From: Craspedostauros australis
Lineage: Eukaryota
Direction: 5' to 3'
Assembly (NCBI GenBank): GCA_030167865.1
Contig: JALAGF010004104.1
Location: 1-64,000, forward strand
Length of the DNA: 64,000 bases
Under the pieces are notes generated by a model. The model did no database searches. It was not told the origin of the DNA and saw only the letters and a program-made list of their open reading frames with translations. Position 1 is the first letter of the stretch. Each line of letters begins with the position of its first letter. A program made the position numbers and the translations under genes. Below, in pieces: positions 7,111-64,000 of this stretch.

Positions 7111-8055
7111 AATCAACGTAGTCGCATCAGTAGCGATGTTCGTGCTTCGTGCTATTGAGTTGCAATCTTAGATAAAAGTGTAAGTGTAAGTGTAGGTGTA
7201 GATATAGTTGCAATTGTAGCTGGAGGCGTACATGTCATCATGGCTGTGGAGGCGCGGTTGTAGAGTAGGTGACTCTCGGGACAGTTGGCGATGGCAGTAG
7301 CAGCGGCGTGTGCTCTAAGTTCTGTGCAAGTACGTGTGTGTCTGAGTGTGGTGAAGGAAGGCACAAAAACGGACAACACACACGATACACACGATACGAC
7401 ACGATACGACACGACCAAACGAACGAACGAACGAATTCAGCGTATCTGCATGTCTGTCTGTTCACCCGGCATTCAACTGGCTGACTGATTGTCCCCTTTC
7501 GATGCATAGTCGCAGCTCGCGCCCGTACCGATGCGTCCTACTCGACTCTACACGGAGATTGTCTGCGAGTATTCCTGACAGCAAACCGGAGACGAAATGG
7601 GAAGGGAAGAAGCGGCAGGAAGAGGAGAGGAGAGGCGAAGTGTGTACGCACCATAAGAATCCAACGTTACCAAGATCAGATAAGGATGGAGTAGGCGGTA
7701 CACGTCAATAGCCAAGACCGGACAAATCCAAGGAGAGCACGGCAAAAGACCAGAGAGAAAAAACACTGAAAGATCAGAACTGAGATTGCCCCGCTTCCCT
7801 ATACTCCACTCTACTCCACTCTACGCTGACCCCACTCTGCGAGTACTCAAGGACAAAACACATCGAACTACGGATCCACCCACAAACCCAACAGGTCTCA
7901 CAATATTCAAATCCGCAACAACCACAGAACACACACCGCATCTCAGCACTACTCGTACCAACACAGCAACACAGCAACACTTCCAGTAGCATTCACTCTC
8001 TTCTTCACCTCTGTTTCCGCTCACGCTCACGCTGACGATCTCGCTCTCGTTCAAG

Positions 8056-9230
8056 ATGATGATGACAACGAACCACACTCCCAGGGTCTTCCTCCCCAAC
8101 CTTGACATCGCCAAGCTTCAGAAGCAGCAGGCGATCTCCAATGCCAAGCGACAGGCCACTCGGCGCAAGAACAGGCACAACAAGACATTCCCATGCAAAC
8201 TCCATCGCATGCTCCGGGATGCCGCGGCAGACGGCAACGAGCACATCGTATCCTGGGTTGCCAACGGAAAAGCATTCAAGGTGCATAGCGTGGATGGATT
8301 CGTGGAACATATCATGCCTCGCTACTTCAGACAGACCAAGTTCAGAAGCTTCACCAGGCAGGTACGTACCATACGAGTAGGGTACTTCTATCAAGATGCC
8401 ATTTGTACCTGCCATCCCGGTGCTCTTTTGAGATTGTCCCAACGCAACAGCACGCTCCTGCGCCATCGATCGTGTGGCCTACCACGCTGGCAACCCTCTT
8501 ATACTCACACATCCCCTTCCCCTAATCCTTTCGTATCCTTTACCTTTTGCCCGTGTACCATTTACCCTTGATCTTTGTGCACAATCAACAGCTGCAGCTG
8601 TATGGCTTCATTAGAGAATGCAAAGCCACATTCCGAGGATCCTATCGTCATCCAAGCTTCTTGAGAGATCAGGAAGAGCTGCACGAACGCGTCGTCCGCC
8701 AGAAGAGCCAGACTAATTCCAAGGCGGAGGCAGCAACAGAACAACCAAGCACACAATCAAAGACGATCGCAACCGCAACCGCAACTGTAACCACCAAGCC
8801 ATACCTAGCATTGCCTATTGCCCAAGCCGAGAGAGAGGATTTGTGCGGAGGAAATGCATCAGTGGGCAGTAGGAACTGCTACCGTCGTGACGAATCCAGC
8901 TGCGACACAAGCAGGCGTAGCAGCTTCACAAGCCACTCAAGTAGAGACTCCAGTGTGGCGACAGACATGACGGCAAGTACAGCAGCGGGTACGACTTCTG
9001 CGGATGTGGTTGCCAGCCTCCATACCAGCATGAATGCGGACACTGCCACTAACGCGACAAATGGAGAATCTCCAGAACAGTTGTCGTTCCTTGGAAAGAG
9101 ATTCTTCCCCACTGACAACGGCGACGCGATGACCACTTCCAGCACCGTCCCTGCAGACATTGTTGTGTCATCTAGCCGTGTGGGAGATGAAGGATACACG
9201 AGCGATGTGCAGCAATGGCAAGAGGTGTAG
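8056..9230 (+). CDS. heat shock factor (HSF-type DNA-binding) transcription factor, copy 1; exons 8056-8361, 8592-9230 (~314 aa)
   Basis: FPCKLHRML..IVSW..NGKAFKVH..F..HIMPRYF.QTKFRSFTRQ|LQLYGF..Y.HPSFLRD; GT-AG intron 8362-8591 restores the RQLxLYGF motif. Confidence 0.93.
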
Positions 9231-9915
9231 CTTAGCCAAGAGGACACTCCTGCAGTCTCACAGGCGTATATCAGTTGATACCGGTTCACACCAGCGCATA
9301 CCGATGCATAAACAGTTCGCAACGCATGGTTCATTTGACACTGTTCCTACCTACCTATTTACCTACCCACCTCCCTCCCTGCCTACCTACCTACCTACCC
9401 GTGCCATTATACTCGTACACTCCCACCTATTACATAATATTAGAGAGCAGGGAAGTCTGCACCCATGCTCAAAGCAAACACAGCAGTACTCGACTCCCAT
9501 TGTCTTGCGCTGTTGGGAATAGATGCAGAGCGCTGCAGCTCCATGTACGACCTACCATAAAACATCGCCATTGCCATTGTCGCCCTCTGTGTTCGTCACA
9601 GCAGCTCTTTTTGCGCGATTCTCCCAAACTCGAACTCCGTGCAGGTTATGAGAAGAGAGCGAAGGATTCAAAGATGGCACGGGCCGCACGAAGTGGTGGA
9701 AGGCGAAGTCACCCAACCTAACATAACATAGACATGCAAACAACATGCACCACAACAAGCACCATAGCAATCAATGCACATCATAAGAGTAAGCACTGAT
9801 TACGTCCGCGCTTACAAATGGAGCACCACACTCTACGTATGCTTTGATTGATCGATTGATTGATCGATTGATTGCATCCCTGCTCGTTCTGCGCACTGCA
9901 TCGAGCTGGAATCCA

Positions 9916-11958
9916 TCACGATAATGCGGATGGGCCAGAGGATGGATCCATCTTCTGGGATCGAGCACGAGCACGAGCACGAGTACGAACGCCATCGCCA
10001 TCACTATCGCTCAAAGCGAGGAACAGCGCAACTCCAATCAAGGAGGCCAGGCCAGCAAATGCGCATTCTACGCCCTGAAGGGTGGGCATCGAATCGGCAG
10101 CCAGACCAAGAAGGAACGGAGCCACGATGTACGCGGCATCACCGGCCGCACGAGGCAGAGCAAGCGCCGTTGCTTCTGATCCCAGTGGCGCCATCTCTTG
10201 GGCAAAGGCCGTCAGAGCTGGTCCTTGCGCTGTTGCGCCCAAACTCCAGCCGAGGACCACCAATGTGAACGCGATGGCCGAAGATGTCAGCTGCCCACCC
10301 AGAAGCGGCGCATCAAGCACGAGGCTATTCGTGGTGTGCAGTATTGCGTCCACATCGCCATTCAATGCCAGCGGTATGGCCATCAATCCAACGCTGCTGA
10401 TGACTCCGCTGACAAGGGCGGTGAACCTGGCATCTGTGCGATCTGTCAACCAGCCGCCGAACGGCGCACCAAGCAACCCGCTCAACCCACACGCGGATAC
10501 CAGCGCGCCCGCACCAGCGGCTCCACCAGGAAGTACTGCTGTTGCCAGGATGGGAATGCTTGCTATCTTGGCGGCAAATCCGAACGTGGCACCAACCTGG
10601 CACAGCGCCAAGCCTTTCCATGAGTTATTCTGCAGCAGCTCCCCCCATCCCACCTCCTCTTCTTCTTCCAGCTGCTGCTGCTGCTGCTGCTGCTGCGATT
10701 GCTGCTGCGTTCTCTTCTTTTTCTGTTGCTGGGGTCCTGTCGCACTCTCAACGGCTTCCGGTGGAGCGATGAAGATGGACTCGATGAAAGAAGTCCGCTT
10801 GTTCGTTTCGGCGGCCATGTCCGTGGCCATGCCCATGTCTGTGTCGATACCTGCACCTCCACTGGCGCTGGCACTGGCGCTGCTCTTCTGCAACTCACCC
10901 TCCAGCTGCCGCGATGCATTAATCCCAGTCGTTTCCGGAAGAAAGCAATACATCAACAGCGCCACGATTGCCGCAGCACTCACGCAAAGAAACGAGGCCC
11001 GAGGGCCATACTGCTCCACCACCACCCCGCCAAAGGGCGCACCGATGGCAATCCCCAGTGCCACCACGGCCTGCTGAGCTGCCAAGATCCTGCCTCGAAT
11101 GTCCGGCACCCGTCCCGCCAGATCTGCAAGCATTCCGCGTTCGCCAGCTTCTGACACGCAGCGTCCCAATCCCAATCCCAGCCGGGCGACGACCAGCGGC
11201 GCGATCGATGTGGCCAGTGCTGTGCCGACATCTGAGGCTGCGATGACCGCCATGCCGATCAGCATGGCTGGCCTGCGCCCACGATCAGCGAAGGTGCCGC
11301 CGGACTTGGCAGCAAGCAGCAATGCCACGGCCGGGGCTGAGATGACGATTCCATTTGCCGCCGATGACAGGCCGATTTCCTTTCCGTACAGCGGGATGGA
11401 TGGGATGACTGCGCCAACTCCCAGGAACAAGATGAACTGCGACAGCAGCAAGATTGCGAGGGGCTGCATCACGTCTGTTGGGATCCCAAAGAGCATCGAT
11501 GAGGAGTCGCCGGTTGCGCCGCCGAGTATGTCCTCGTTTTCATCCTTGTCTCTACCGGTGTCGTTGATTGTGTGTGATCGTTTTGTGGCTGCCAGCGACG
11601 TGGGAGTGTTTTGTCTGCTCTGCTTGATTTCCCACTTGTGCCGATGCTGACGTTGCTGCAGGTGTGGATGTAGATGTGGAGCATTCCTTGCTATGAAGCC
11701 ACCGCCACACACGGCCTCAGATTGCATGGCGTGTGAATTTGACCGAAAGGAAGCCACATAGCTGGAAGATGCCAATGGACCTCTGCTCGATCGCTCCACA
11801 ACGAACGCGTCTGCAACGTGCACCAACAGCAGTGCTTGGAGAAGTAACAGAAGGATCAGCGCTGTCGCTTGCTTTGTTGTTGTCCATGTTGCTGTCCATG
11901 TTGCTGTCCATGTTGCTGTCCATTTTACTGCCAATGGTATCGCAGTTGTTCGTGTCAT
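9916..11958 (-). CDS. MFS transporter (MFS_1/DHA1-like) with signal + putative plastid transit peptide, copy 1
   Basis: Multiple TM helices, motif-A-like GTFADRGRRP and GGWLTDRTDAR; likely start MTRTT at 11958; hydrophobic signal ending ADA-FV. Confidence 0.9.
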   Translation of the reverse strand: MTRTTAIPLAVKWTATWTATWTATWTTTKQATALILLLLLQALLLVHVADAFVVERSSRGPLASSSYVASFRSNSHAMQSEAVCGGGFIARNAPHLHPHLQQRQHRHKWEIKQSRQNTPTSLAATKRSHTINDTGRDKDENEDILGGATGDSSSMLFGIPTDVMQPLAILLLSQFILFLGVGAVIPSIPLYGKEIGLSSAANGIVISAPAVALLLAAKSGGTFADRGRRPAMLIGMAVIAASDVGTALATSIAPLVVARLGLGLGRCVSEAGERGMLADLAGRVPDIRGRILAAQQAVVALGIAIGAPFGGVVVEQYGPRASFLCVSAAAIVALLMYCFLPETTGINASRQLEGELQKSSASASASGGAGIDTDMGMATDMAAETNKRTSFIESIFIAPPEAVESATGPQQQKKKRTQQQSQQQQQQQQLEEEEEVGWGELLQNNSWKGLALCQVGATFGFAAKIASIPILATAVLPGGAAGAGALVSACGLSGLLGAPFGGWLTDRTDARFTALVSGVISSVGLMAIPLALNGDVDAILHTTNSLVLDAPLLGGQLTSSAIAFTLVVLGWSLGATAQGPALTAFAQEMAPLGSEATALALPRAAGDAAYIVAPFLLGLAADSMPTLQGVECAFAGLASLIGVALFLALSDSDGDGVRTRARARARSQKMDPSSGPSALS

Positions 11959-13521
11959 GATTGATGAATGACCAATGGACGGACGATCGATCGATCGATG
12001 GATTTGCTCGGCGGCCAATGACGGATTGACTGGTGGTTTCGATGCCATGTGCGTTGGTGGTTTCGGTTTGTGCAACGGCAGCAGCTCTTGCTTCACGAAC
12101 GATCGTGAGGAAGCACAGCGGGGATAGCAATATTCACGCGCCAATCCGAATGTGGTGCTTTCGAATGCGTAGAGCAGATCAGCCGTGTTGTGCAAGCATC
12201 ACGCCATGTCGTGCGAGCTATGATGTGATCGTATGGTACCAATAATACCAATCCAGTTGCGTGAGGTTGTGACATGTGTGTGTGTGTGTGTGTGTGGTTG
12301 GGAATGGTGTGCTGTGTGTAGTCTGTGTTGTTTCGCTGTGTGGTTCTTTCTGTCATGATGGTACCCGTGTCGCCACAGAGTACCACGGCAGTGATCAATT
12401 CGGTGTGTTGAAAGTTGAGTCGTATCATGGAATTGGAAGCTACGGTGGTTTATAATTTAATACATATAACGAATATGTGAATAGCGATTGTAACGGTTGC
12501 GGTAATATTAACAAACACAGGAGAATAGACTCTCTCTTTCCAAATGACACAAAGAGCACACGTGGCCATCTAACCGATGTTATTGCGTTCTCGTCATCTA
12601 TCACAAGAACAGGCGGAGGTGGGACCCAAACACATGACAACAACAGCACGCCGGCCTTCACACAACCTTCATGGCAACAACAACACTGAACTTGCAGGCG
12701 CGACACGACTCAGCCACGAACAGATACACAGGCCCAGACAAAGAGGAGAGGTGGAGAAACAGTGCAAAAGAACCGAACAGCAGCTGCTTCACAAGTCGCA
12801 CATCACACTTCTCGCGCTTCGGTCCTTGCTCGTCTCACATGATGCCAAGATACCACATCATGCTGTCCATCATCTCGCCGCGCGACACACATTGGATTCG
12901 CGCGATCTCATTGTAGTTCTGCGAATATTCGGAATGAATGATAGTCTCGGCGCATGCAAGGGGCGTTGGATCTGCCATGTGAAGCATATATATGTTAACC
13001 GCACAAACAACTGCATCGAGCGACATGGGAACGGCTGCGCACGGACCGATCCTCCTGATTGCATTTCAGAAACGCAAAGATGCCCACAAGACGACGTATA
13101 GCAGAGAACATCACATTTCCAGTCGGTGTTTGTGGTGGGCACGACTCCGGTTCGGCTTGCGCTGGAGATTGTGTCTCTTTGGAGCAGGCTCTTGCTCGCA
13201 CACACGCAGATTTTGCCATAGCCATCCAGTTGCGATAGTTGTTGCGCAAGAGCGCGATGGGACTTCAAGGAACAAACGACCGCTGACGGACAGGGACATC
13301 TTAATTGGAGAAAACCAAAGCGTGTGGAGAGATATCGACAACAGTACGCCATACTCGACTGGACTCGGGCTATGTTGGAGGTAATGCAGATAACGATGGC
13401 AACGGCTTCACAAGCAATCCCTGGAGATGTCAATCAGAAGGAGGAAACACCTGGTCACCTTTCCTCGACGTAGACCCTCGAGGCTAAATCGACGAGGAAG
13501 GTCGGTTTCCACATCATCTAT

Positions 13522-13525
<4 letters not shown>

Positions 13526-13556
<31 letters not shown>
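13526..13556. repeat. (TC)n microsatellite
   Basis: ~15 units. Confidence 0.95.
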
Positions 13557-13558
<2 letters not shown>

Positions 13559-14882
13559 ACGCGCACTTCGGCTCTCCTCCCTGTTTGGTTGTTCTGAAAC
13601 CGGTGTGTTGTTCCACTCGTCGCCAACGGCTTTTCCGTTCTGGGTGCGTTGGGCATTGGGCCTTTGGGTGGTTTTGATTCACCGTTGGCGAAATAGATTG
13701 GTCCACGGAATTTCTTTGTCGCTTCGTGTGCTGCTGATCGCAGCCGCAGTCGCGGACAACCGTGGTGCCAGTGGTGTTCACCATCGGTGGTGGAATCTCC
13801 CACATCATAACTGTCCCAACAACTAACGCCATTGATCGCAACAACTATCACAGAAAGCTTGTTCATCTCCACCAACACGGGCAAGCCACGCGACTTGTGC
13901 TCCACAGAATCCATATATTTGGCGATGGTTGTCGCTCGTTGGGAGAAAATGAACACCGCAGACACTATATATAGTGTCAATCATCGCACAACAGCTCGAT
14001 GTATATACTTGTGGACTTATCTTTGCACGTCTGTTTGTCGTGCAAGACACGAAAAGTCGGTACTATATGTCCAACGCCTAATAGTTTGTGGACCAACCCG
14101 TCACTCGGTACTTCGCCGATGATGGATATTCTGTTGGTCGAATCACCTGATGACGAGGCGTGACACAGTACGGGAACATACGCGAGACCGGATCCAAAAG
14201 CAAGCAAAAGCCTGGCAAAAAGACGTTGGATGCAAATCGACTGTAGCGAGGAAAGAGGGGCGGCAAGAAGTTGATGCGCCTCTGAGCATTGGGCCGCAAA
14301 TGCTAGAATCTCCCCCTCTCTCCATCATTCGTCGGCTCTCGCTCTCTTCCTCGCACCTCTCCACAGGTCTTCGATGGCATGAGGTTCCGACGAATCCTTT
14401 TTCGCGAATTCCTTCGCGCATGTTTCACGGCTCAGCGTCCGACAACAACCCCCCTCTCAATTCTGCCTGCCAACATTCATCGATCAATCAGACTCTCGTT
14501 CTCCGTCACCCGTTTTCAATCAGTTGACATCGCCTCCTTCCTTCGTCACATGGCAACACATCAGCTGCTCAGTTCTCCCGTTCGTCCGTGCATGGTATCA
14601 AACATCACTTATCACGCCGGACTCCCGATGATTAAACAGACGCGACCGAAGCCTTTGACACAACGATGAAACATACCGTGTGCTGCACCAACTAACCTTC
14701 GAACAACATCCCAGAGCATACTCGGTCCACCACGCACCCGAAGAAGCCAACGCAGCCCGCCGTGACTTCCTCGCAAGTCTACGACGGAATCACTGCTTTG
14801 GCGAGCTGTTCTCTTCACACTGCTCGACCGAGCTGCGGCAGCAAGGCTGACAGGACTACTGAATGCCAAAGTACGTCGGCAA

Positions 14883-17015
14883 ATGGCCAAACAATCAAGA
14901 ACTCCAACACTCGAACACTCCAACATCGACGCCGACCATCCGAGAAACCTGTCAAACACAAGGATCATGGCATGCTTCGGCAGTCGACCTATTTCTGGCA
15001 CAGTCGATACACTCTTTGACCTATTCAAAGATCCCAACTCCTCCAACTCCAGCAGCATCCGCGCAATTCCCCGATCCTCTACGATGGATGATTTGGGAGG
15101 CAAGTTCCACGATGTGGGGAGTACCACGCCTCTGGAAGAGCTCATCGGCAGTTCCATCGGATCGATCGACACCATTGAGACGATCGAAGTCACCACAGAG
15201 AGCAATCACGTTGACAACGGTGATGGGTGTGGCAACAATGTTCATTGTGCCGCGGCCAAAGCTGAAGCTGGCGCTACCACAGACAACCAATCTCGATCAG
15301 TTGGGAGGGCGCCCAATCCAGTGACATCCTTTGCCACTTACCCTCAACGAGACCCATCGCATGGTACCAATCATCGTCTGCGTCGCTTCCATCGGGAACA
15401 TCAGCGACAACATCAACATCAGCGACAGCACCAAGGGTTGAAACAGAACGAGCTGCACACATTCGAACTCGGTGGCCCAGTCGCTGACAACGCTATCACA
15501 AGTACGAGTACTGATACGGATCATGCAACGAGGAAGCGCAAGCCACCGGGCGACAAGGCCATGTTTGACGGACGATGCCAAAAGACAGGCGGCGTTGCTC
15601 ATTACGGTGACGTCAACAATCATAACGCAGGCCGAGAAGTGCCAACCATCATCGCGACGGTAGATGCCAACAATTCAAGCAGAGCAGCAGCCTCCGCATG
15701 TGGCTACACTGCTGACTTCGCTCCGTCCATTCACGCTGCGCCCATATCTGCACCGTGGCCGATGGCGCCCGATCGCTTGATGGGCAGCTCCCATCCTTTG
15801 TTGTACCAATACCAGGAACCAACACCTACTTTCCATGAATCACCTGTGATAGAACGTTCCACAAGTACGCAGCACGTCGACAGCAAGCTTTGTGATCTGG
15901 CTGCTGCTGCTACTGCTGCTGCTGGTGGTGGTGGACGGCAGGCAGCGGCTGCCTTCGTGTCGACGCCAGCAGCCGTGGCTACTCCGGCGCGACTAATAGC
16001 AAGAGTTCCCGAAAGATCAGCAATGTACTCTGAGGTCCAAACTAGAAGCGGGAAATCAGCTAGTCGCAAGGATAACACCGATGGCATTGATCGTGTTTCG
16101 CCTGGTGCTTTCAAGGTGACGGTGCCGTGCCAGAAAGGTGAAGAGAACAACGATTGCATCGCTGGTGCTGATGTTAGAATCGGTTCTTCCGTCGATCATC
16201 ATGACGAAGGTAAGCATTTCGCATCACGCTGGAACTATGGTAAGGGTTTGCAATCACTTCATCCTTTGCAGAACACCCTGCCCCGTACTCCAATAACAGC
16301 AATGCACCATGACAAGCGCCGAAAGGTCGCAGATCAACAACCCCCACGCCAAATCGATTTCATGCATGCATCTTCCATTCACTCGCATCCGCAGGATATC
16401 GCCAACAGCAATAACTCCGGCTCCAACATCAACGCCAGTCCACCTGTGGCAACAGACAAAAAAGAAGAGTCGACAATTCATTCCATGAAGCAAGTAAAGC
16501 CCAATGAATCCACGGAGTGCCCAAAGCCAACAGAGATGATGGGCCACACCAAGCGGAGCAAGACAACGGCTTCCAAAGGGACAAGGAAACCTCCCCCAAA
16601 GGAAAAGATCTTCGTTGACAAGACGGAGTTTGATGTACTCTCTGGTAGAGGCAGCGGTCCTGCCGAACACAAAGGCAACAGATGGTACAGAGAGCTCGTG
16701 GAGAAATACAAGCCGATCTACAAGAAAGAAGGCATCACCAAGTGTGAGAAGACAACAATAGCAGCAAAGATCGTTGATCAAGTCAAGCAACGAGGTGGGA
16801 GATTTCTCGAAAATGAGCCCAGCTCAGGATCGCAGACAGGTTCGGGACCCGGATCCGAGTCCGCTTCGAGAGTAGGAGGTCGCTGGTTCATCTCTCATGA
16901 CAAAACGGCGAGAGAGAAGGTATCTGCAGCCTTGAGGCAGGACAATACGAAGGAGTTCAATCTGGCCAAGCGCAAGAAGTACGAAGGCGACAACCGTAGC
17001 TGCAAGCGGCCGTGA
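14883..17015 (+). CDS. DUF6824-domain protein (diatom-expanded, putative DNA-binding)
   Basis: C-terminal DVLSGRG...HKGNRWYRELV...K..IAAKIVDQVKQRGGRFL...W......AREKVSAALR motif; long low-complexity N-terminus, start uncertain. Confidence 0.85.
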   Translation: MAKQSRTPTLEHSNIDADHPRNLSNTRIMACFGSRPISGTVDTLFDLFKDPNSSNSSSIRAIPRSSTMDDLGGKFHDVGSTTPLEELIGSSIGSIDTIETIEVTTESNHVDNGDGCGNNVHCAAAKAEAGATTDNQSRSVGRAPNPVTSFATYPQRDPSHGTNHRLRRFHREHQRQHQHQRQHQGLKQNELHTFELGGPVADNAITSTSTDTDHATRKRKPPGDKAMFDGRCQKTGGVAHYGDVNNHNAGREVPTIIATVDANNSSRAAASACGYTADFAPSIHAAPISAPWPMAPDRLMGSSHPLLYQYQEPTPTFHESPVIERSTSTQHVDSKLCDLAAAATAAAGGGGRQAAAAFVSTPAAVATPARLIARVPERSAMYSEVQTRSGKSASRKDNTDGIDRVSPGAFKVTVPCQKGEENNDCIAGADVRIGSSVDHHDEGKHFASRWNYGKGLQSLHPLQNTLPRTPITAMHHDKRRKVADQQPPRQIDFMHASSIHSHPQDIANSNNSGSNINASPPVATDKKEESTIHSMKQVKPNESTECPKPTEMMGHTKRSKTTASKGTRKPPPKEKIFVDKTEFDVLSGRGSGPAEHKGNRWYRELVEKYKPIYKKEGITKCEKTTIAAKIVDQVKQRGGRFLENEPSSGSQTGSGPGSESASRVGGRWFISHDKTAREKVSAALRQDNTKEFNLAKRKKYEGDNRSCKRP

Positions 17016-21800: not shown

Positions 21801-21887
21801 GGTGGAGAAGGCTTGCGTCGTCGTTGCTGCCGCAAGGCAGCACAGCAGCATCAGCCGCGCGGCCGCCGGTGTGCTCAGTCGGACCAT
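18805..21887 (-). CDS. EGY-like M50 (S2P) membrane zinc metalloprotease, plastid-targeted; exons 21887-20004, 19755-19350, 19064-18805
   Basis: HETGH (HExxH); GPLCG; NALALLPIGT|TDGGR (NxxPxxxxDG) formed across the intron; GT-AG introns; signal ending TQA-FS. Confidence 0.88.
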
Positions 21888-32407: not shown

Positions 32408-32522
32408 CGCAGACCAACGGCAGAATCACGATCGTTGGCATAAGACGTATAAATAGAGTGATGAGCTACTACTAGTACTTCTACAAGTGCGTTTGCTTAA
32501 TCGCATCCGGAGTGGTGCGTCG

Positions 32523-45027: not shown

Positions 45028-45068
<41 letters not shown>

Positions 45069-52781: not shown

Positions 52782-53089
52782 ACTACGACATGAGACGGAC
52801 ACTGCTGCTGCAAGCGCACTACACGGACATGCGCATGGACAAGGGCATGGTCATGCACATGAATGGTTAAATCAAACGATGCAGCCCATGCGGACGATCT
52901 TCACCTTGGTTTCGCACTGAGTGAAAGCGCACGAGGATGAAGAGAGATCAAACATAATCTACTCTACTCTAATAGACAACAACACCGTAGATGGGGTGAT
53001 TGCATCTCTCTGCCTGTAATATCTTTGTGTCATAACATTGCAAGCGCGGTGCACCAATGCGAGTGCAATACTCTGAGACAGTGCCATGG

Positions 53090-53575: not shown

Positions 53576-54293
53576 CGTGTTTGGTTTGTGTTCACGGGAC
53601 GGCGACCTTTCTTTCTCGACTGATGGAATGGAACGCGTTGATGGATTGCACAAAGTATAGCAGCAACCGAAGTGATGGGGATTGTTCGCTTTTGTCTCCG
53701 TCTCGATGTGTGGTGAATGTTGTGGTTGTTGCGCTCGTCACCTCATCCATTGCGTTCTGCGTCATTGCGGGAAACGGGAACGAACATCATTCGCGCATTT
53801 GTGTTGATGAACTGCTTAAGAAATCGAACCAGTCAAACAATATCGATCAATGCGACTACAATCCAAGCTCTTTTTCTTTTGCGAATCGCAAAGCAATCTC
53901 CCAGTCACGTTTCTTCTCGCCGAAGATACTGTGTCGCGTTCGCTCGTTGAGGTTCTCACGTTTGTCGTGGAGGCATCCCAACGAAGTTCGTTGTTGATCT
54001 CTGTCTGTCGCTTCTCATTCGACACGAACAGTTCGTCTTGTGATGCCAAAGGGGCTCAAGGAACAACAGCCAGAACCAATACGCATCACTGGTCCAGCAT
54101 CGATCTACTTCATGGTTGTGTGCCGCAGCGCATCGCAGCGCGACGCTTCGTGTGGTGCCATAAAAATACTCTTCGCAACTTGCAGCTCGTGTCATACGAG
54201 TACATCACGCATCACGCACCGCACATCACCGAAGCTCTACTCTACTCTACTCTACTCTGCTCTGCTCTGCTCAACTCCATCTCCAAGCGAAAC

Positions 54294-55529
54294 ATGACAT
54301 CGGCAGAAACTCTCGTGGTGATCGGCGGCGGCGTCGGCGGGCTGATCGCCATCTCCGAGGTCAGGAGGCTCAACCAGGAAGTTGCCATCACTCTGATCGA
54401 ACCGAAGGACTTCTTCGAGGTGCCTTGGTCCAGCGTGCGCGGTCTCATCGATGCGAAGGTGTCTCACGCCTCCACCCACTCCCTCAAGGACTGGGCATCC
54501 GAGCACAATGTCAAGCTCATCAATTCTTACGTCACGTCGATGGACGAGGACAACATCAACATGGCCAACTCGCGCACCATTGTCGACTTCGATCTCGTGC
54601 TCGTCGCGGTCGGCGCCACGAATCCAGAACCGGGCTTGGGACGCACGACGCCGGGACAGGGCGGCAGCATCGAAGAGGGCGACCGCCTCGATACCATGGC
54701 GAAGCGCGGACAGGAACTGATCAACTGCGGATCCGTCGCCATCGTCGGAGGCGGTTTGATCGGCATCGAGATGGCGGGAGATCTCGCGGCCACAGCCAAG
54801 CAGCGAGAGATCCCGCTGCACGTGCATCTCATCCACTCCGAACCGAGGCTCGCGATGAACGAAATGACGGCCGGTGCCTCGGCCATGGCGCAGCGCAAGC
54901 TGCAGAAGCTGGGCGTCACGCTGCATCTCGGAGAGCGGTGCAAGAAGATGTCCAACAACCCCGACGATCAGCATGATCTGCTCCTTCCGGCATCGAACAC
55001 GCAGGTGTCGGCCAACGAGATCGTGTGGACCACGGGCATCTCGTCGCACAACGACTTCCTCGGCGTCGACTACAAGACCTTCGAAACGAACTGGCTCAAG
55101 GTCGACGAGTACTTCCGCCTCCTCATCACGGTGAAGAGGAAGGGGAATGTGAACAAGCCCTCCGAGAAGTACTTTGCCTTCGGCGACTGCTGCGATTGGT
55201 GGCCCAACACCGGCATGGCCCTGATGGAAAATGGCAAGACCATCGGACACAACCTCACGATGGCTCTGTACACCATCGCCGAACGAAAAGCCGCCAGGTC
55301 CGGAGCGGCAGATGAAGGTGCCGCCAAAACGAAGACGAAGTCCAAAGTCAAGCCATTCAAAAAGGCCAAGGCGCCGCCACGTATCACCGTCACCACTATC
55401 GGGCCAAAAAGTGGCGTCGCCAGCGGCATCGGATGCTGCGGTCACACGCAATTCATTCTGCCCGGCATGAAGAACAAGACGATGTTCTTGTCCAACATCG
55501 AGAAGGCCGCCGACTTGCAAGGGCTGTGA
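54294..55529 (+). CDS. AIFM2/FSP1-like FAD/NAD(P)H oxidoreductase
   Basis: VVIGGGVGG, FDLVLVAVG, AIVGGGLIGIEMAGD, WTTG, LKVDEY and FAFGD motifs; start MTSAE at 54294. Confidence 0.85.
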   Translation: MTSAETLVVIGGGVGGLIAISEVRRLNQEVAITLIEPKDFFEVPWSSVRGLIDAKVSHASTHSLKDWASEHNVKLINSYVTSMDEDNINMANSRTIVDFDLVLVAVGATNPEPGLGRTTPGQGGSIEEGDRLDTMAKRGQELINCGSVAIVGGGLIGIEMAGDLAATAKQREIPLHVHLIHSEPRLAMNEMTAGASAMAQRKLQKLGVTLHLGERCKKMSNNPDDQHDLLLPASNTQVSANEIVWTTGISSHNDFLGVDYKTFETNWLKVDEYFRLLITVKRKGNVNKPSEKYFAFGDCCDWWPNTGMALMENGKTIGHNLTMALYTIAERKAARSGAADEGAAKTKTKSKVKPFKKAKAPPRITVTTIGPKSGVASGIGCCGHTQFILPGMKNKTMFLSNIEKAADLQGL

Positions 55530-56395
55530 AGATGAGTGACCGACACCCTCATCCCAAGTTGCTCGACGTCGCAGCGATCTCTGATCCGTCGACATCTCCC
55601 GCATCGCCTTAATTTTAGTGCCCGACCAGGTGGAATGCTTCCTCCATGGGCAAGGATCGCTTCCACTCCTCTACGTAGAAGTGCAGATGTATTAATTTAT
55701 AATATTATATCATATTCTATGATTTATGAGTTGTAACCTCTGGAGAGGGACTTGTCTTCTTCTGCCTACAGAGACGAGGATGGTACCTTTGTACGACGAC
55801 TGGTGGAGTTGTCTATCGAAGCGATGACGACACAAGTGATCAACATCGCGGAAGCCGCGGTAAAATGGACGTCACTGACACATGAAACATCCATTTTGCG
55901 TAGCCTTGTTGGTTTGTCTTGCTGCTGTTCAGAGCGGATGCGCGGTGCTCCTGAAGAATGAAAAACGTGAATCCAAGACTCAATTTTTTCGCTCGATCTG
56001 GTCTGGCCAAAAGAGCAAACAAGATGATGACGAAAAAACAAACTGGCGCAACGCGGTGCAAAATGGGGATTCGAAGACTTCCTCATGCTTCATCTCGTTG
56101 TTGTCATTGCGACGTTCACCGCGCGAACATGCTCTGTTCTTGCTCGTATCATCGGAGTGCAGTTTTCGACGGATGCTCGGATCCACAATCATTTTACATT
56201 CGCCATCCTCAGACAAGCATACTCAGCATACTCGATCGCAATACTTGTGCAGTTTGACAGGCTGTTTGAGGCAACAAGAGCGGCATATAATAATTAGCAA
56301 CTTATTCAATTTATATAATATAATATATAGTAAGTAGCAACAGCAGGAGCAAGATTAGGAGCATCATAGCAAGAGCCACCACAAAGGGAAGAACC

Positions 56396-58924
56396 ATGTC
56401 ATATCCAGCACAGGTGCACACCGCCACTCCGGCGCACATGCCTCAGCCAGGCGGCTCCGCCATGGGAGGCGCTCCAGGAGGCCCGGGATCGGCCGCCATC
56501 CCAGACTCGTACTTCACGGAGTCTCGCAAGGGCGAGGTGAACGAGCTGCGCAACCTCCTGCGCAACTTCGCCACGGAGCGCAGCCAGCAGCGCAAGCGAG
56601 ACATCCTGAAGAAGGTCATCGGCTACATGACCATCGGCATCGACGTCTCCAGGCTCTTCACCGAGATGATGCTGGCCATCGAGACGCGCGACCTCGTCAT
56701 CAAGAAGATGGTCTACCTCTACCTGTGCAACTACGCCAACACGCACCCCGATCTGGCGCAGATGTGCATCAACACGCTGCAGAAGGACTGCGGCAACGAG
56801 GACCCCATGGTCAGGGGCCTGGCGCTGCGCGCGCTCTGCTCCCTCAACCTGCCGCAGATGGTGGAGTACATCGGCGAGCCGCTGCGCCGCTCCCTGCAGG
56901 ACCACCATGCCTACGTGCGCAAGACCGGCGTCATGGGCATCCTCAAGCTCTACCATCTGGACCCGGACTCCTTCCGCGAGGCCAACTTCGTCGACATCCT
57001 CTACGACATGCTCAAGGACGTCGACTCCTCCGTGGTCTCCAACGCCATCCTCGTGCTCAACGAGATCCTGGCGCACGAGAAATCGCCCAACGGCGGCATG
57101 GCCATCAACCGCGCCATCATGCTGCACCTGCTCAACCGCATCCACGAATTCGCAGAGTTCCAGATCCTCCAGGTGCTGGACCTCGTGCCGCGCTACATCC
57201 CGGCCAACGCGGAGGAGGGCTTCCAGATCATGAACCTCCTGGACCCCATCCTCAGGACGTCGTCGTGCGCCGCTGTGCTGTCCACCGTGCGCGGATTCCT
57301 CTCCTTGGCCGATCAGATTGGCGGTGACGACCACACTGAGATGAAGCAGCAGGTCGTGGGACGCGTCAAGGCCTCGCTCATCACGCTCATGGCATCCGGC
57401 AGCAGCGAGATGGAGTTCTGTCTGCTCAAGCAAATCAAGGCGCTGGTGGAGCTGTGTCCGGGATCCTTCGATGACGAGTACCGCCAGTTCTACATCCGCT
57501 ACAACGAACCAACGCACGTCAAGTACCTCAAGGTCGAGGTCCTCGCCTTGCTGGCCAATCCGGAGACCGCCCCGGACATCGTCGCCGAGCTGTCCGAGCT
57601 CGTCCAATCCAACGACACGGACCTGTCGCGTCTGGCCATCCGCAGCTTGTCCCGCATCGCATGCCGCAACACGGGTGGTCCAGGTTGCGCGGAAGCCATC
57701 GCGCAGCGCATGGTGGAATGGATGGACTTCTACTCGGTGGAGCACATCCCGTCCGAAGCTGCCACCGCGCTCACGCTGATGGTTCGCAAGCATCCATCGC
57801 TCAAGCCCATGTGCAGCATCTCGCTGGCCCGCACCCTCAAATACCTAAAGGAACCCGCAGGCAAGGCCAGCGTCATCTACCTTCTGGGCGAATGCGGTGA
57901 CACAGTCGCCGAGGCGCCTTATGCCATCGAGAAGCTCATCGATTCCTACGGCACCATCGAGGATGTCACCGTCAAGATGGCGCTGCTCAATGCCACGATG
58001 AAGCTCTTCTTCAAGCGGCCGCCGGAAGTCCAACGCATGCTGGGCCGCTTGCTGCATGCGGCAACGGACGACGTCTCCTCCCAGGATCTGCACGATCGTG
58101 CGCTGCTGTACTACCGTTTGCTGCAGTCCGGAGCCGATCCAAAGTCTGTCATCGCGTCAGTCCTCAACACGGATGCGACGCTGTCGGCGGAGAACGAATT
58201 CGCCGAAGACGACGACCAGGTGCTGCGACAGGGGCTGATGAAGGAGTTCAATTCGCTTGCCACCATCTACGACAAACCGAGCATCGGATTCGTCAGCGAG
58301 AAGTTCCAGGTCAGCTACAAGATGATGCCAGATGAACATCCTCTGGAGGACATGGGTGGAGGAGCAACCGCAAGTCACGTCCCCGCTGCGCCATCCGGCA
58401 TGTCCGAGCAAGCTACGTCCAGCACGCCAGCAGCACCACAGCAGGAGTACCAACAGCCAGCACCGGCAGGTGGTGCCGTGACGGACCTCTTGGGCTTTGG
58501 CGGATCCGCGGAGCCCGCTGCTGCTCCTGCAGCACCTGCCGGAGGCATTGTTTTGGAAGCTCAGGGCACGATGACTGGGGAGGAATACCAAGGCGCGTGG
58601 GGCAGCATGCCCGACTCTGCAGCAGTCGTCGGCATGGTCATGCTGCCACGAATCCCACCGTCTACAGACGTCGTGGAAGCTGCGCTGGCGAGCGAAAACA
58701 TCTCCACCATGGCCAGCGGTGAGCTACCAGCAGAATTCAAATTCTTCCTCTATGCCAAAGACGCAGCATCCGGATCCCTCTTCCTTATCCAATCCAACAT
58801 TTCCAAGCAAGATGCAGAACCGATGATGATCCTCACGGTCAAGGTCAGCGGCGGAGACGGTGCTGATACCCAGCGCAAGGTCGATCAGCTCGTTGCAATC
58901 GCGCAAAAGGTACTCGCGGTGTAA
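56396..58924 (+). CDS. AP4B1: AP-4 adaptor complex beta subunit (beta-adaptin)
   Basis: KKVIGYMTIGIDVSRLF, KKMVYLYL, DPMVRGLALR, YVRKT, QDLHDRALLYYRLL, EFNSLATIY; C-terminal appendage. Confidence 0.9.
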   Translation: MSYPAQVHTATPAHMPQPGGSAMGGAPGGPGSAAIPDSYFTESRKGEVNELRNLLRNFATERSQQRKRDILKKVIGYMTIGIDVSRLFTEMMLAIETRDLVIKKMVYLYLCNYANTHPDLAQMCINTLQKDCGNEDPMVRGLALRALCSLNLPQMVEYIGEPLRRSLQDHHAYVRKTGVMGILKLYHLDPDSFREANFVDILYDMLKDVDSSVVSNAILVLNEILAHEKSPNGGMAINRAIMLHLLNRIHEFAEFQILQVLDLVPRYIPANAEEGFQIMNLLDPILRTSSCAAVLSTVRGFLSLADQIGGDDHTEMKQQVVGRVKASLITLMASGSSEMEFCLLKQIKALVELCPGSFDDEYRQFYIRYNEPTHVKYLKVEVLALLANPETAPDIVAELSELVQSNDTDLSRLAIRSLSRIACRNTGGPGCAEAIAQRMVEWMDFYSVEHIPSEAATALTLMVRKHPSLKPMCSISLARTLKYLKEPAGKASVIYLLGECGDTVAEAPYAIEKLIDSYGTIEDVTVKMALLNATMKLFFKRPPEVQRMLGRLLHAATDDVSSQDLHDRALLYYRLLQSGADPKSVIASVLNTDATLSAENEFAEDDDQVLRQGLMKEFNSLATIYDKPSIGFVSEKFQVSYKMMPDEHPLEDMGGGATASHVPAAPSGMSEQATSSTPAAPQQEYQQPAPAGGAVTDLLGFGGSAEPAAAPAAPAGGIVLEAQGTMTGEEYQGAWGSMPDSAAVVGMVMLPRIPPSTDVVEAALASENISTMASGELPAEFKFFLYAKDAASGSLFLIQSNISKQDAEPMMILTVKVSGGDGADTQRKVDQLVAIAQKVLAV

Positions 58925-59649
58925 CGCAACCAAGCGAGCATCTCAATTAACAGCATCACCAGAGCATTGCAAGTCCTTCTAGTCTCGTATGGCTGTGCCA
59001 ATGGAATTGGAGGTGACGCGATCATGGTACTTCATTGGAGTCTCTCCGGAGAGAGGCGCCATCAACAATCCCTGCAGTTTCGTCGCTCTCTTCGTCCTCG
59101 TAGCCTGTCTGTCTGTGTGTATTTGTCTGTTTACAAACCAGCGAGTACTGATTCCAGCACTGGAATGGTGATTTGAGTTCAATGAACATACAACGCTCCT
59201 TTTCCATGATACTATCACTAGTACCTGTTTGATTTCAATGTACCGTGTGATGGGTATCATCGTGTCACCAACCACACAGCGAAACAACACAGACTACACA
59301 CAGCACACCATTCCCAACCACACACGCACACACATACACATGTCACAACCTCACGCAACTGGATTGGTATTATCGGTACCACACGATCACATCATAGCTC
59401 GCACGACATGGCGTGATGCTTGCACAACACGGCTGATCTGCTCTACGTATTCGAAAGCACCACATTCGAATTGGCGCGTGAATATTGCTATCCCCGCGGT
59501 GCTTCCTCATGATCGTTCGTGAAGCAAGAGCTGCCGTTGCACAAACCGAAACCACCAACGCACATGGCATCGAAACCACCAGTCAATCCGTCATTGGCCG
59601 CCGAGCAAATCCATCGATCGATCGTCCGTCCATTGGTCATTCATCAATC

Positions 59650-61668
59650 ATGACACGAACAACTGCGATACCATTGGCAGTAAAATGGACAGGAACATGG
59701 ACAACAACAAAGCAAGCGACAGCGCTGATCCTTCTGTTACTTCTCCAAGCACTGCTGTTGGTGCACGTTGCAGACGCGTTCGTTGTGGAGCGATCGAGCA
59801 GAGGTCCATTGGCATCTTCCAGCTATGTGGCTTCCTTTCGGTCAAATTCACACGCCATGCAATCTGAGGCCGTGTGTGGCGGTGGCTTCATAGCAAGGAA
59901 TGCTCCACATCTACATCCACACCTGCAGCAACGTCAGCATCGGCACAAGTGGGAAATCAAGCAGAGCAGACAAAACACTCCCACGTCGCTGGCAGCCACA
60001 AAACGATCACACACAATCAACGACACCGGTAGAGACAAGGATGAAAACGAGGACATACTCGGCGGCGCAACCGGCGACTCCTCATCGATGCTCTTTGGGA
60101 TCCCAACAGACGTGATGCAGCCCCTCGCAATCTTGCTGCTGTCGCAGTTCATCTTGTTCCTGGGAGTTGGCGCAGTCATCCCATCCATCCCGCTGTACGG
60201 AAAGGAAATCGGCCTGTCATCGGCGGCAAATGGAATCGTCATCTCAGCCCCGGCCGTGGCATTGCTGCTTGCTGCCAAGTCCGGCGGCACCTTCGCTGAT
60301 CGTGGGCGCAGGCCAGCCATGCTGATCGGCATGGCGGTCATCGCAGCCTCAGATGTCGGCACAGCACTGGCCACATCGATCGCGCCGCTGGTCGTCGCCC
60401 GGCTGGGATTGGGATTGGGACGCTGCGTGTCAGAAGCTGGCGAACGCGGAATGCTTGCAGATCTGGCGGGACGGGTGCCGGACATTCGAGGCAGGATCTT
60501 GGCAGCTCAGCAGGCCGTGGTGGCACTGGGGATTGCCATCGGTGCGCCCTTTGGCGGGGTGGTGGTGGAGCAGTATGGCCCTCGGGCCTCGTTTCTTTGC
60601 GTGAGTGCTGCGGCAATCGTGGCGCTGTTGATGTATTGCTTTCTTCCGGAAACGACTGGGATTAATGCATCGCGGCAGCTGGAGGGTGAGTTGCAGAAGA
60701 GCAGCGCCAGTGCCAGCGCCAGTGGAGGTGCAGGTATCGACACAGACATGGGCATGGCCACGGACATGGCCGCCGAAACGAACAAGCGGACTTCTTTCAT
60801 CGAGTCCATCTTCATCGCTCCACCGGAAGCCGTTGAGAGTGCGACAGGACCCCAGCAACAGAAAAAGAAGAGAACGCAGCAGCAATCGCAGCAGCAGCAG
60901 CAGCAGCAGCAGCTGGAAGAAGAAGAGGAGGTGGGATGGGGGGAGCTGCTGCAGAATAACTCATGGAAAGGCTTGGCGCTGTGCCAGGTTGGTGCCACGT
61001 TCGGATTTGCCGCCAAGATAGCAAGCATTCCCATCCTGGCAACAGCAGTACTTCCTGGTGGAGCCGCTGGTGCGGGCGCGCTGGTATCCGCGTGTGGGTT
61101 GAGCGGGTTGCTTGGTGCGCCGTTCGGCGGCTGGTTGACAGATCGCACAGATGCCAGGTTCACCGCCCTTGTCAGCGGAGTCATCAGCAGCGTTGGATTG
61201 ATGGCCATACCGCTGGCATTGAATGGCGATGTGGACGCAATACTGCACACCACGAATAGCCTCGTGCTTGATGCGCCGCTTCTGGGTGGGCAGCTGACAT
61301 CTTCGGCCATCGCGTTCACATTGGTGGTCCTCGGCTGGAGTTTGGGCGCAACAGCGCAAGGACCAGCTCTGACGGCCTTTGCCCAAGAGATGGCGCCACT
61401 GGGATCAGAAGCAACGGCGCTTGCTCTGCCTCGTGCGGCCGGTGATGCCGCGTACATCGTGGCTCCGTTCCTTCTTGGTCTGGCTGCCGATTCGATGCCC
61501 ACCCTTCAGGGCGTAGAATGCGCATTTGCTGGCCTGGCCTCCTTGATTGGAGTTGCGCTGTTCCTCGCTTTGAGCGATAGTGATGGCGATGGCGTTCGTA
61601 CTCGTGCTCGTGCTCGTGCTCGATCCCAGAAGATGGATCCATCCTCTGGCCCATCCGCATTATCGTGA
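59650..61668 (+). CDS. MFS transporter, copy 2
   Basis: Same translation as copy 1 except the N-terminus (WTGTWTT vs WTATWTATWTATWTT). Confidence 0.9.
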   Translation: MTRTTAIPLAVKWTGTWTTTKQATALILLLLLQALLLVHVADAFVVERSSRGPLASSSYVASFRSNSHAMQSEAVCGGGFIARNAPHLHPHLQQRQHRHKWEIKQSRQNTPTSLAATKRSHTINDTGRDKDENEDILGGATGDSSSMLFGIPTDVMQPLAILLLSQFILFLGVGAVIPSIPLYGKEIGLSSAANGIVISAPAVALLLAAKSGGTFADRGRRPAMLIGMAVIAASDVGTALATSIAPLVVARLGLGLGRCVSEAGERGMLADLAGRVPDIRGRILAAQQAVVALGIAIGAPFGGVVVEQYGPRASFLCVSAAAIVALLMYCFLPETTGINASRQLEGELQKSSASASASGGAGIDTDMGMATDMAAETNKRTSFIESIFIAPPEAVESATGPQQQKKKRTQQQSQQQQQQQQLEEEEEVGWGELLQNNSWKGLALCQVGATFGFAAKIASIPILATAVLPGGAAGAGALVSACGLSGLLGAPFGGWLTDRTDARFTALVSGVISSVGLMAIPLALNGDVDAILHTTNSLVLDAPLLGGQLTSSAIAFTLVVLGWSLGATAQGPALTAFAQEMAPLGSEATALALPRAAGDAAYIVAPFLLGLAADSMPTLQGVECAFAGLASLIGVALFLALSDSDGDGVRTRARARARSQKMDPSSGPSALS

Positions 61669-62353
61669 TGGATTCCAGCTCGATGCAGTGCGCAGAACGA
61701 GCAGGGATGCAATCAATCGATCAATCAATCGATCAATCAAAGCATACGTAGAGTGTGGTGCTCCATTTGTAAGCGCGGACGTAATCAGTGCTTACTCTTA
61801 TGATGTGCATTGATTGCTATGGTGCTTGTTGTGGTGCATGTTGTTTGCATGTCTATGTTATGTTAGGTTGGGTGACTTCGCCTTCCACCACTTCGTGCGG
61901 CCCGTGCCATCTTTGAATCCTTCGCTCTCTTCTCATAACCTGCACGGAGTTCGAGTTTGGGAGAATCGCGCAAAAAGAGCTGCTGTGACGAACACAGAGG
62001 GCGACAATGGCAATGGCGATGTTTTATGGTAGGTCGTACATGGAGCTGCAGCGCTCTGCATCTATTCCCAACAGCGCAAGACAATGGGAGTCGAGTACTG
62101 CTGTGTTTGCTTTGAGCATGGGTGCAGACTTCCCTGCTCTCTAATATTATGTAATAGGTGGGAGTGTACGAGTATAATGGCACGGGTAGGTAGGTAGGTA
62201 GGCAGGGAGGGAGGTGGGTAGGTAAATAGGTAGGTAGGAACAGTGTCAAATGAACCATGCGTTGCGAACTGTTTATGCATCGGTATGCGCTGGTGTGAAC
62301 CGGTATCAACTGATATACGCCTGTGAGACTGCAGGAGTGTCCTCTTGGCTAAG

Positions 62354-63528
62354 CTACACCTCTTGCCATTGCTGCACATCGCTCGTGTATCCTTCATCTC
62401 CCACACGGCTAGATGACACAACAATGTCTGCAGGGACGGTGCTGGAAGTGGTCATCGCGTCGCCGTTGTCAGTGGGGAAGAATCTCTTTCCAAGGAACGA
62501 CAACTGTTCTGGAGATTCTCCATTTGTCGCGTTAGTGGCAGTGTCCGCATTCATGCTGGTATGGAGGCTGGCAACCACATCCGCAGAAGTCGTACCCGCT
62601 GCTGTACTTGCCGTCATGTCTGTCGCCACACTGGAGTCTCTACTTGAGTGGCTTGTGAAGCTGCTACGCCTGCTTGTGTCGCAGCTGGATTCGTCACGAC
62701 GGTAGCAGTTCCTACTGCCCACTGATGCATTTCCTCCGCACAAATCCTCTCTCTCGGCTTGGGCAATAGGCAATGCTAGGTATGGCTTGGTGGTTACAGT
62801 TGCGGTTGCGGTTGCGATCGTCTTTGATTGTGTGCTTGGTTGTTCTGTTGCTGCCTCCGCCTTGGAATTAGTCTGGCTCTTCTGGCGGACGACGCGTTCG
62901 TGCAGCTCTTCCTGATCTCTCAAGAAGCTTGGATGACGATAGGATCCTCGGAATGTGGCTTTGCATTCTCTAATGAAGCCATACAGCTGCAGCTGTTGAT
63001 TGTGCACAAAGATCAAGGGTAAATGGTACACGGGCAAAAGGTAAAGGATACGAAAGGATTAGGGGAAGGGGATGTGTGAGTATAAGAGGGTTGCCAGCGT
63101 GGTAGGCCACACGATCGATGGCGCAGGAGCGTGCTGTTGCGTTGGGACAATCTCAAAAGAGCACCGGGATGGCAGGTACAAATGGCATCTTGATAGAAGT
63201 ACCCTACTCGTATGGTACGTACCTGCCTGGTGAAGCTTCTGAACTTGGTCTGTCTGAAGTAGCGAGGCATGATATGTTCCACGAATCCATCCACGCTATG
63301 CACCTTGAATGCTTTTCCGTTGGCAACCCAGGATACGATGTGCTCGTTGCCGTCTGCCGCGGCATCCCGGAGCATGCGATGGAGTTTGCATGGGAATGTC
63401 TTGTTGTGCCTGTTCTTGCGCCGAGTGGCCTGTCGCTTGGCATTGGAGATCGCCTGCTGCTTCTGAAGCTTGGCGATGTCAAGGTTGGGGAGGAAGACCC
63501 TGGGAGTGTGGTTCGTTGTCATCATCAT
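62354..63528 (-). CDS. HSF transcription factor, copy 2; exons 63528-63223, 62992-62354
   Basis: Translations identical to 8056-9230. Confidence 0.93.
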
Positions 63529-64000
63529 CTTGAACGAGAGCGAGATCGTCAGCGTGAGCGTGAGCGGAAACAGAGGTGAAGAAGAGAGTGAATGCTACTG
63601 GAAGTGTTGCTGTGTTGCTGTGTTGGTACGAGTAGTGCTGAGATGCGGTGTGTGTTCTGTGGTTGTTGCGGATTTGAATATTGTGAGACCTGTTGGGTTT
63701 GTGGGTGGATCCGTAGTTCGATGTGTTTTGTCCTTGAGTACTCGCAGAGTGGGGTCAGCGTAGAGTGGAGTAGAGTGGAGTATAGGGAAGCGGGGCAATC
63801 TCAGTTCTGATCTTTCAGTGTTTTTTCTCTCTGGTCTTTTGCCGTGCTCTCCTTGGATTTGTCCGGTCTTGGCTATTGACGTGTACCGCCTACTCCATCC
63901 TTATCTGATCTTGGTAACGTTGGATTCTTATGGTGCGTACACACTTCGCCTCTCCTCTCCTCTTCCTGCCGCTTCTTCCCTTCCCATTTCGTCTCCGGTT

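Follow-up and report, generated by a model that had tools for sequence, protein, structure and literature searches.

A 64,000-nt stretch of DNA from the diatom Craspedostauros australis (GenBank assembly GCA_030167865.1, contig JALAGF010004104.1, positions 1 to 64,000 of the forward strand; hereafter the window) contains a long inverted repeat in which two near-identical arms, each carrying an HSF transcription factor gene and an MFS transporter gene, enclose a 46.9-kb unique segment. On balance, this locus is probably a genuine inverted segmental duplication, or "palindrome with spacer", whose arms have been homogenised by intrachromosomal gene conversion. Among the evidence for this reading is the spread of the differences between the arms, all of which lie at the inner edge next to the spacer. 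The parts of the locus are the following.

7584..12345: left arm, 4762 nt, its start fixed by the window end and not by biology
59270..64000: right arm, 4731 nt, the left arm in reverse complement, running off the window end
7584..11912: outer left arm, identical to 59672-64000, 1387 nt of non-coding DNA included
12346..59269: single-copy spacer, 46,924 nt, gene-dense
1..7583: left flank, part of the arm if the repeat goes on beyond 64000

Comparing the window with itself by blastn, we find that 7584-12345 is the reverse complement of 59270-64000 at 99.16% identity over 4762 columns, with 9 mismatches and 3 gap openings (E=0.0, 8543 bits), a match far above chance. A repeat search gives 7584-11912 and 59672-64000 as complementary at 100% over 4329 nt, followed inward by three shorter pieces at 91-97%. 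The length of the outer identical block depends on how a gap in a tandem repeat is placed: it is 4307 nt with the gap placed as in the global alignment and 4329 nt otherwise. The inverted repeat reported in an initial annotation of this DNA is thus recovered at the same coordinates by both searches. That annotation had also remarked that the right arm runs to the window end and that the repeat may be longer, and the right arm is indeed cut at 64000. Position 7584 mirrors window position 64000, hence the outer boundary lies outside the view and the arm is at least 4.7 kb long. No second copy of the left flank (1-7583) was found by blastn in the rest of the window. The window has no ambiguous bases (0 N), and its sole other self-match is a 38-nt (TC)n/(AG)n pair at 13522-13559 and 45027-45064. 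We rejected this inverted match as a real repeat, since it is a chance pairing of dinucleotide microsatellites.

The position of the differences within the arms is highly uneven, and all of them fall in one interval.

11891..12345: inner edge of the left arm, diverged from its partner at about 59270-59693 and holding every difference

In a global alignment, all 11-12 differences have left-arm coordinates of at least 11891, that is, they lie in the inner 455 nt or so. Moving inward, the first difference met is a 24-nt indel inside a 12-nt tandem array (11875-11923), followed by a 4-nt indel in a GATC repeat (11984-11987) and a 3-nt GCA indel (12078-12080); all three indels are whole units of short tandem repeats. 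Eight substitutions are unambiguous (12105, 12117, 12146, 12167, 12233, 12241, 12280 and 12289), seven of them transitions, and a ninth near 11915 is subject to gap placement. With 7 transitions in 8-9 substitutions and indels made of repeat units, the differences look like natural mutations. Apart from the 24-nt indel and one residue change in the MFS protein, they sit upstream of the shared MFS ATG. Substitution density at the inner edge is 1.8-3.3%, reaching 3.3% across the last 241 nt, and no perfect block between differences exceeds 90 nt. The outer 4307 nt, of which 1387 nt are non-coding, hold no difference at all. Under a uniform spread, the probability that all 11 events land in the inner 455 of 4762 nt is P=6e-12. 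If the outer non-coding DNA had the substitution density of the inner edge, it should show 24-46 differences; it shows 0, so gene constraint is not the explanation of the outer identity. This leaves three options: an old duplication (2-3% diverged) that was later homogenised, an inner edge that mutates abnormally fast, or copies that were homogenised by the assembly. Arm-to-arm gene conversion, which the initial annotation had raised, gains indirect support from this spread, since no difference lies outside the inner 455 nt and the outer 4.3 kb match completely, in coding and non-coding DNA alike.

The two genes of each arm, and a tandem array within one of them, are as follows.

8056..9230, + strand: HSF gene, left copy (HSF_DNA-bind; 314 aa; one intron)
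62354..63528, - strand: HSF gene, right copy, nucleotide-identical to the left copy
9916..11958, - strand: MFS (DHA1/NorA-like) gene, left copy (MFS_1; 680 aa; ATG at 11958, stop at 9916)
59650..61668, + strand: MFS gene, right copy (MFS_1; 672 aa)
11875..11923 (right arm about 59685-59709): coding 12-bp tandem array, 4.1 copies left, about 2 right

Read from the outside, the left arm consists of 472 nt (7584-8055), the HSF gene, a 685-nt intergenic region holding a (CCTA)n microsatellite, the MFS gene, and 387 nt to the end of homology. Pfam matches and strands agree with the earlier description of a convergent HSF and MFS pair in each arm, and both HSF and both MFS copies are intact. The HSF_DNA-bind matches have E=7e-12 to 8e-12. 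In the left copy, exon 1 (8056-8361) is followed by a GT..AG intron (8362-8591) and exon 2 (8592-9230), and the joined exons give an open 314-aa frame. Exon 1 covers HSF_DNA-bind positions 1-55 of 100 (E=8e-12), with the match ending at the exon end; no Pfam match was found for exon 2 alone, which leaves the second half of the DNA-binding domain without independent support. The splice model follows from the GT/AG borders, the continuity of the frame and the join of FTRQ to LQLYGF.

The MFS genes match MFS_1 with E of about 1e-32, and the source labels of their relatives are DHA1/NorA-like permeases. Compared with the left protein, the right one lacks 8 aa, in frame, and has one residue of its N-terminal repeat changed from A to G; the rest is identical. 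The left N-terminus consists of four WTAT/WTTT units and a hydrophobic, signal-peptide-like stretch, then VADA followed by F; the right one lacks two WTAT units, corresponding to the in-frame 24-nt indel. An A-F pair after the hydrophobic stretch also occurs in three of the seven aligned homologues (P0004, P0006 and P0047). The ASAFAP-type motif of plastid targeting is described as carrying F at +1 (PMC4329603). Targeting of the MFS transporter to the plastid is plausible, because VADA followed by F resembles this motif and the A-F pair is common to three homologues. Of the earlier label "plastid transporter", the MFS identity stands and is joined by the signal-peptide-like stretch and its A-F, while the plastid half is plausible only. 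As a separate observation, the 12-nt array encodes the WTAT/WTTT units ahead of the signal-peptide-like stretch and has about 4 copies in one paralogue and 2 in the other, so that the length of the presequence varies between the MFS copies.

Homology between the arms ends in intergenic DNA on both sides, about 45 nt past an interrupted (TG)n tract. The genes nearest to these ends within the spacer are the following.

12577-13101, + strand: spacer-end ORF (open reading frame), left, no family
56396-58924: spacer-end gene, right, AP-complex beta subunit (Adaptin_N)

On the left, the homology ends between the MFS start at 11958 and the + strand ORF from 12577, and on the right 345 nt after the stop of the AP-complex beta-subunit gene. 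Past the inner boundary, a sensitive blastn of 12346-16000 against 55600-59269 gave no significant similarity (best E=0.015 over 45 nt), and a MAFFT alignment suggests weak similarity for no more than about 25 nt past 12345. The inner junctions interrupt no recognisable gene. RNA genes were not found by Rfam at the repeat boundaries; its only hit in the window is a tRNA gene in the middle of the spacer.

The duplication has some age, as its inner edge has diverged by about 2-3%. Under the conversion reading, arm-to-arm conversion would homogenise the outer arms, and a conversion tract would need unbroken homology on both its sides. The inner 455 nt would escape, being interrupted by three indels and closely spaced substitutions into blocks of at most 90 nt and lying beside the end of homology; poorly converted, it may have kept the older divergence. 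The 12-bp array at 11875-11923 is proposed as a barrier to conversion tracts. Conversion intermediates that are resolved as crossovers would invert the 46.9-kb spacer. Mitotic interhomolog recombination is reported to be very frequent in Phaeodactylum tricornutum, at 4.2 per 100 divisions (10.1101/2020.11.08.373134). Given such frequent mitotic recombination in a diatom, together with the rates reported for human palindrome P6 and for human inverted duplications (given below), occasional inversion of the spacer is plausible. It would be expected to behave as an occasional, near-neutral structural polymorphism and not as a regulated switch, because, with identical arms and inner junctions that lie between genes, a flip would only swap the upstream contexts of the MFS copies and turn the spacer round relative to the rest of the chromosome. 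A stronger claim, that this segment of 46.9 kb and roughly 17 genes toggles by mitotic recombination in clonal diatom populations with both isomers coexisting, seems to us an unlikely extension. If toggling were true, the locus would be a nuclear counterpart of plastid inverted-repeat isomers and the first of its kind described in a stramenopile, the 24-nt, 4-nt and 3-nt indels would serve as phase markers, and the MFS copies would swap upstream contexts with each flip.

Several points weigh against the reading as a real duplication homogenised by conversion. That there are two copies, and that their outer 4.3 kb match perfectly, is known from the assembly alone, and small true differences can be lost when multi-mapped reads are used for polishing. 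An edge effect predicts a matching rise in divergence at the outer end, which lies beyond the window. The comparison covers one sequence, whose best protein relatives share only 50-57% identity with it over most of the length. That indels act as conversion barriers is our inference. Finally, arms and spacer have the same GC content (0.544 and 0.543), which gives no signal of GC-biased conversion, a process that has been reported for P6 (PMC3723533).

A very recent duplication that has seen no conversion could also produce an uneven spread: the arms would be identical through their youth, and error-prone synthesis during repair (break-induced or template-switching replication) would have put the changes at the inner edge while the copy was made. 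Repair by replication causes mutations close to junctions; here all differences sit no more than 455 nt from the inner junction, with none elsewhere, and the indels are slippage-type events in tandem repeats. However, a substitution density of 3.3% over the last 241 nt is much above reported junction-associated mutagenesis, and the transition-rich spectrum (7 of 8-9) resembles ordinary divergence, and we therefore hold a young, unconverted duplication to be unlikely. The assembly offers another source of perfect identity, either through a mis-joined copy of a single-copy locus (a haplotig or a walk through the repeat graph) or through diverged copies that were polished to a false 100%. A perfect 4.3-kb identity is what a collapsed graph node would give, the right arm reaches the end of the sequence seen, and in a diatom genome, scaffolding is reported to be confused by segmental duplications close to contig ends (PMC8147415). 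Against this, there are no N runs in the window, and the arms differ at their inner edge by 8-9 substitutions and 3 indels and join different unique DNA in intergenic sequence where homology decays, not at the stop of a perfect match. A fold-back read artefact would leave almost no spacer, whereas here 46.9 kb of unique genes lie between the arms, and about 3% of true divergence is unlikely to have been polished away. Taken together, these observations make an artefact quite unlikely. The repeat could instead be the footprint of a past 47-kb inversion by staggered breaks, in which the sequence between paired breaks was duplicated. The arms are formerly unique, gene-bearing, non-repetitive DNA placed exactly at the segment ends, with no repetitive or mobile element at the junctions, and inverted duplications are reported at the ends of 17 of 29 Drosophila inversions (PMC1885836). 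The arms of at least 4.76 kb nevertheless contrast with a Drosophila median of 321 bp and a maximum of about 1.9 kb aligned (PMC1885836). Such an event would also explain the origin only; the identity gradient would still need later homogenisation, and to that extent the account overlaps with the duplication and conversion that we prefer. As a self-sufficient explanation we find it distinctly improbable.

The initial annotation had likened the locus to an invertible, flip-flop segment, and the case for such a system can be assessed from the content of the window. Our Pfam domain scan covered 133 frames: 21 ORFs, a subset of 101 drawn from 220 stop-to-stop ORFs of 110 aa or more, and 11 large ORFs without annotation, re-scanned at E<=1; the 101 exclude frames overlapping or antisense to already annotated genes and right-arm duplicates. 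Transposase, integrase, reverse transcriptase and recombinase domains numbered 0 in these 133 ORFs (21 + 101 + 11) of the window, which agrees with the earlier statement that no transposase or recombinase is visible. We also found no tandem telomere repeats in the 64-kb window and no centromere-like low-GC tract in it, the lowest 500-nt GC being 43.8% around a mean of 54%. The comparison is with a criterion from another diatom species, P. tricornutum, whose centromeres are described as having <33% GC over about 500 bp (10.1101/096016). A composite transposon or an element bounded by terminal inverted repeats was rejected, as no transposase or reverse transcriptase domain occurs in the ORFs scanned and the arms are two ordinary host genes. 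A segment served by a site-specific recombinase of the Hin/Gin/FLP type was discarded, as no recombinase domain occurs in the 133 ORFs. A large inverted repeat of a plastid genome was set aside as well, the arms having no rRNA operon and carrying HSF (with an intron) and MFS genes.

In a programmed flip-flop locus, regulated recombination between the arms would flip the spacer and change expression, as in the mating-type loci of methylotrophic yeasts. The kb-scale, near-identical inverted repeat and a 46.9-kb spacer within the known flip/flop size range would fit. However, the two spacer ends carry unrelated genes (at the left, 12577-13101, an ORF with no family; at the right, 56396-58924, an AP-complex beta subunit), both arms have the same genes and not alternative cassettes, the ORFs scanned show no recombinase domain, and the window has neither a telomere array nor a 500-nt tract that approaches the P. 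tricornutum criterion (minimum GC 43.8% versus <33%). Judged from this anatomy, an inversion would leave the expressed gene set unchanged. The suggestion of a yeast-type switch is not supported, in that alternative end cassettes and an adjacent silencing centromere or telomere are not seen in the window, and we regard it as very improbable indeed.

The spacer holds about 17 genes and several ORFs without a family. Those above the Pfam cut-off encode a DUF6824 protein, an AAA ATPase, a CS+SAP protein, a WD40 protein, a DTW+GNAT fusion, a nitroreductase-family protein, an inositol-phosphatase-like protein of 1610 aa, a pyridine-nucleotide-disulphide oxidoreductase and an adaptin. Two further features of the window are listed here.

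36962-37033, - strand: tRNA-Pro (anticodon CGG), mid-spacer, sole RNA gene in the window (Rfam)
1714-3249, + strand: bZIP-like ORF (bZIP_1 E=4.7e-4, 20.7 bits against a curated cut-off of 27.6)

The bZIP gene named in the initial annotation lies upstream of the left arm; a bZIP_1 match is present there, as claimed, but it is weak and its 20.7 bits stay under the cut-off of 27.6. Some of the spacer ORFs have unusual structures. The fusion at 30494-32407 (+) is a 637-aa ORF that joins a DTW domain (E=2.6e-41) to a C-terminal GNAT/FR47 acetyltransferase domain. In the 1610-aa ORF at 37540-42372 (-), the only match is a C-terminal Exo_endo_phos2 domain, and in a 2232-aa ORF at 45681-52379 (+) it is a C-terminal VPS9 match under the cut-off. 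The regions of these two ORFs have AT skews of -0.34 and +0.36 and many short tandem repeats, from which it follows that both proteins are largely low-complexity. Two long overlapping ORFs of 496 and 734 aa at 18808-22169 (-) have no Pfam family and may be one gene with an intron or a frame change.

The host DNA looks like a diatom nuclear chromosome, as judged from its gene content and protein relatives. Diatom-type content in the Pfam results includes the DUF6824 protein, HSF and the weak bZIP match. The best MFS relatives are diatom proteins with 50-57% identity over 70-88% of the query; those that are named come from Seminavis robusta, Nitzschia inconspicua, Cylindrotheca fusiformis and MMETSP transcriptomes (47-59% identity), and no near-identical MFS protein is among the matches listed. 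An Atlas look-up of the 759-aa ORF at 32526-34802 returned only a diatom hypothetical-protein cluster (score 0.91), and the neighbour cluster is labelled mostly Bacillariophyta.

If real, the duplication would offer a small, naturally marked system in which to measure both intrachromosomal gene conversion and inversion by non-allelic homologous recombination in a diatom. In the work cited here, mitotic recombination in diatoms has so far been measured between homologues, not between paralogous repeats (10.1101/2020.11.08.373134). The MFS copies differ only in their promoter or 5' region and N-terminal repeat and can therefore be distinguished by RNA-seq. We infer that the dose of both arm genes is doubled, which, if the locus is real, would concern a stress-type transcription factor and a candidate plastid-envelope transporter. 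The type of system is familiar: segmental duplications in inverted orientation, palindromes and the inversions that they mediate are already well described elsewhere. HSF families in diatoms are reported to expand by local duplication (10.1101/2020.02.11.942037). As local HSF duplication is ordinary in diatoms and the locus behaves like a small palindrome of the sex-chromosome type or an inversion hotspot between inverted duplications, we class it with known systems.

Among these, the large inverted repeats of plastid genomes recombine to give two orientation isomers and keep their arms identical. The present locus differs from them in being nuclear-type DNA, with a GT-AG spliceosomal-type intron, nuclear gene families and 54% GC. 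A diatom nuclear segment that is flanked by inverted repeats and invertible was not among the literature matches listed, which is no proof of absence. The duplications left by staggered breaks in Drosophila are similar in that unique gene sequence, with no repetitive element, is duplicated in inverted orientation at the ends of a segment. They are reported to be at most about 1.9 kb long, 88% identical on average and often decayed (PMC1885836), whereas here the arms are at least 4.76 kb, 99-100% identical and have both copies intact. The flip/flop loci of the yeasts Ogataea, Komagataella, Ascoidea and Saturnispora likewise have a kb-scale inverted repeat flanking an invertible region of 19-194 kb. 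The repeat is given as 2 kb in Ascoidea, with inversion by homologous recombination between the repeats (PMC6692504), and the reported region sizes are 19 kb (PMC5720833) and 44, 138 and 194 kb (PMC6692504). In those loci, MATa and MATalpha are described at opposite ends, with a centromere or telomere silencing the adjacent cassette (PMC6692504); alternative cassettes and a silencing centromere or telomere are both absent within this window.

Comparable with the inversion considered here are the recurrent, toggling inversions of the human genome, in which a gene-rich unique segment lies between high-identity inverted duplicates. They are reported to need no dedicated recombinase but to arise by non-allelic homologous recombination, with rates of 3.4e-6 to 2.7e-4 per generation and repeat length as the main predictor (10.1101/2021.12.20.472354). 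High-identity inverted repeats flanking a unique segment, the arrangement on which such toggling depends, are found at this locus. In contrast to the human cases, of which 70-72% are reported to have flanking repeats of at least 10 kb (10.1101/2021.12.20.472354), at least 4.7 kb is visible here, and this locus is known in one orientation, that of the assembly.

The palindromes of primate sex chromosomes (human Y P6 and the X palindromes) also provide a parallel. The X palindromes are delimited by an arm of at least 8 kb (PMC8327919) and the P6 arm is about 104 kb, compared with 4.76 kb visible here, where the window end truncates the right copy. At this locus the spacer, with about 17 genes, has some ten times the length of the visible arm. 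The organism is a unicellular diatom, the locus is without known sex linkage, and conversion is read from one sequence instead of population or interspecies data. For P6, conversion is reported at 2.5-3.2e-4 and inversion at 1.4-1.7e-5 per generation, making conversion about 20-fold more frequent (PMC3723533), and palindrome arms are described as >99.9% identical through conversion (PMC3723533), with inversion as the rarer crossover outcome (PMC3723533, PMC8327919). Spacer size is comparable, being about 46 kb in P6 (PMC3723533) and ranging from 77 bp to 358 kb in X palindromes (PMC8327919). As in these palindromes, gene-bearing inverted arms of at least 99% identity surround a unique spacer, with 99.16% identity here over the whole arm and 100% over its outer 4329 nt.

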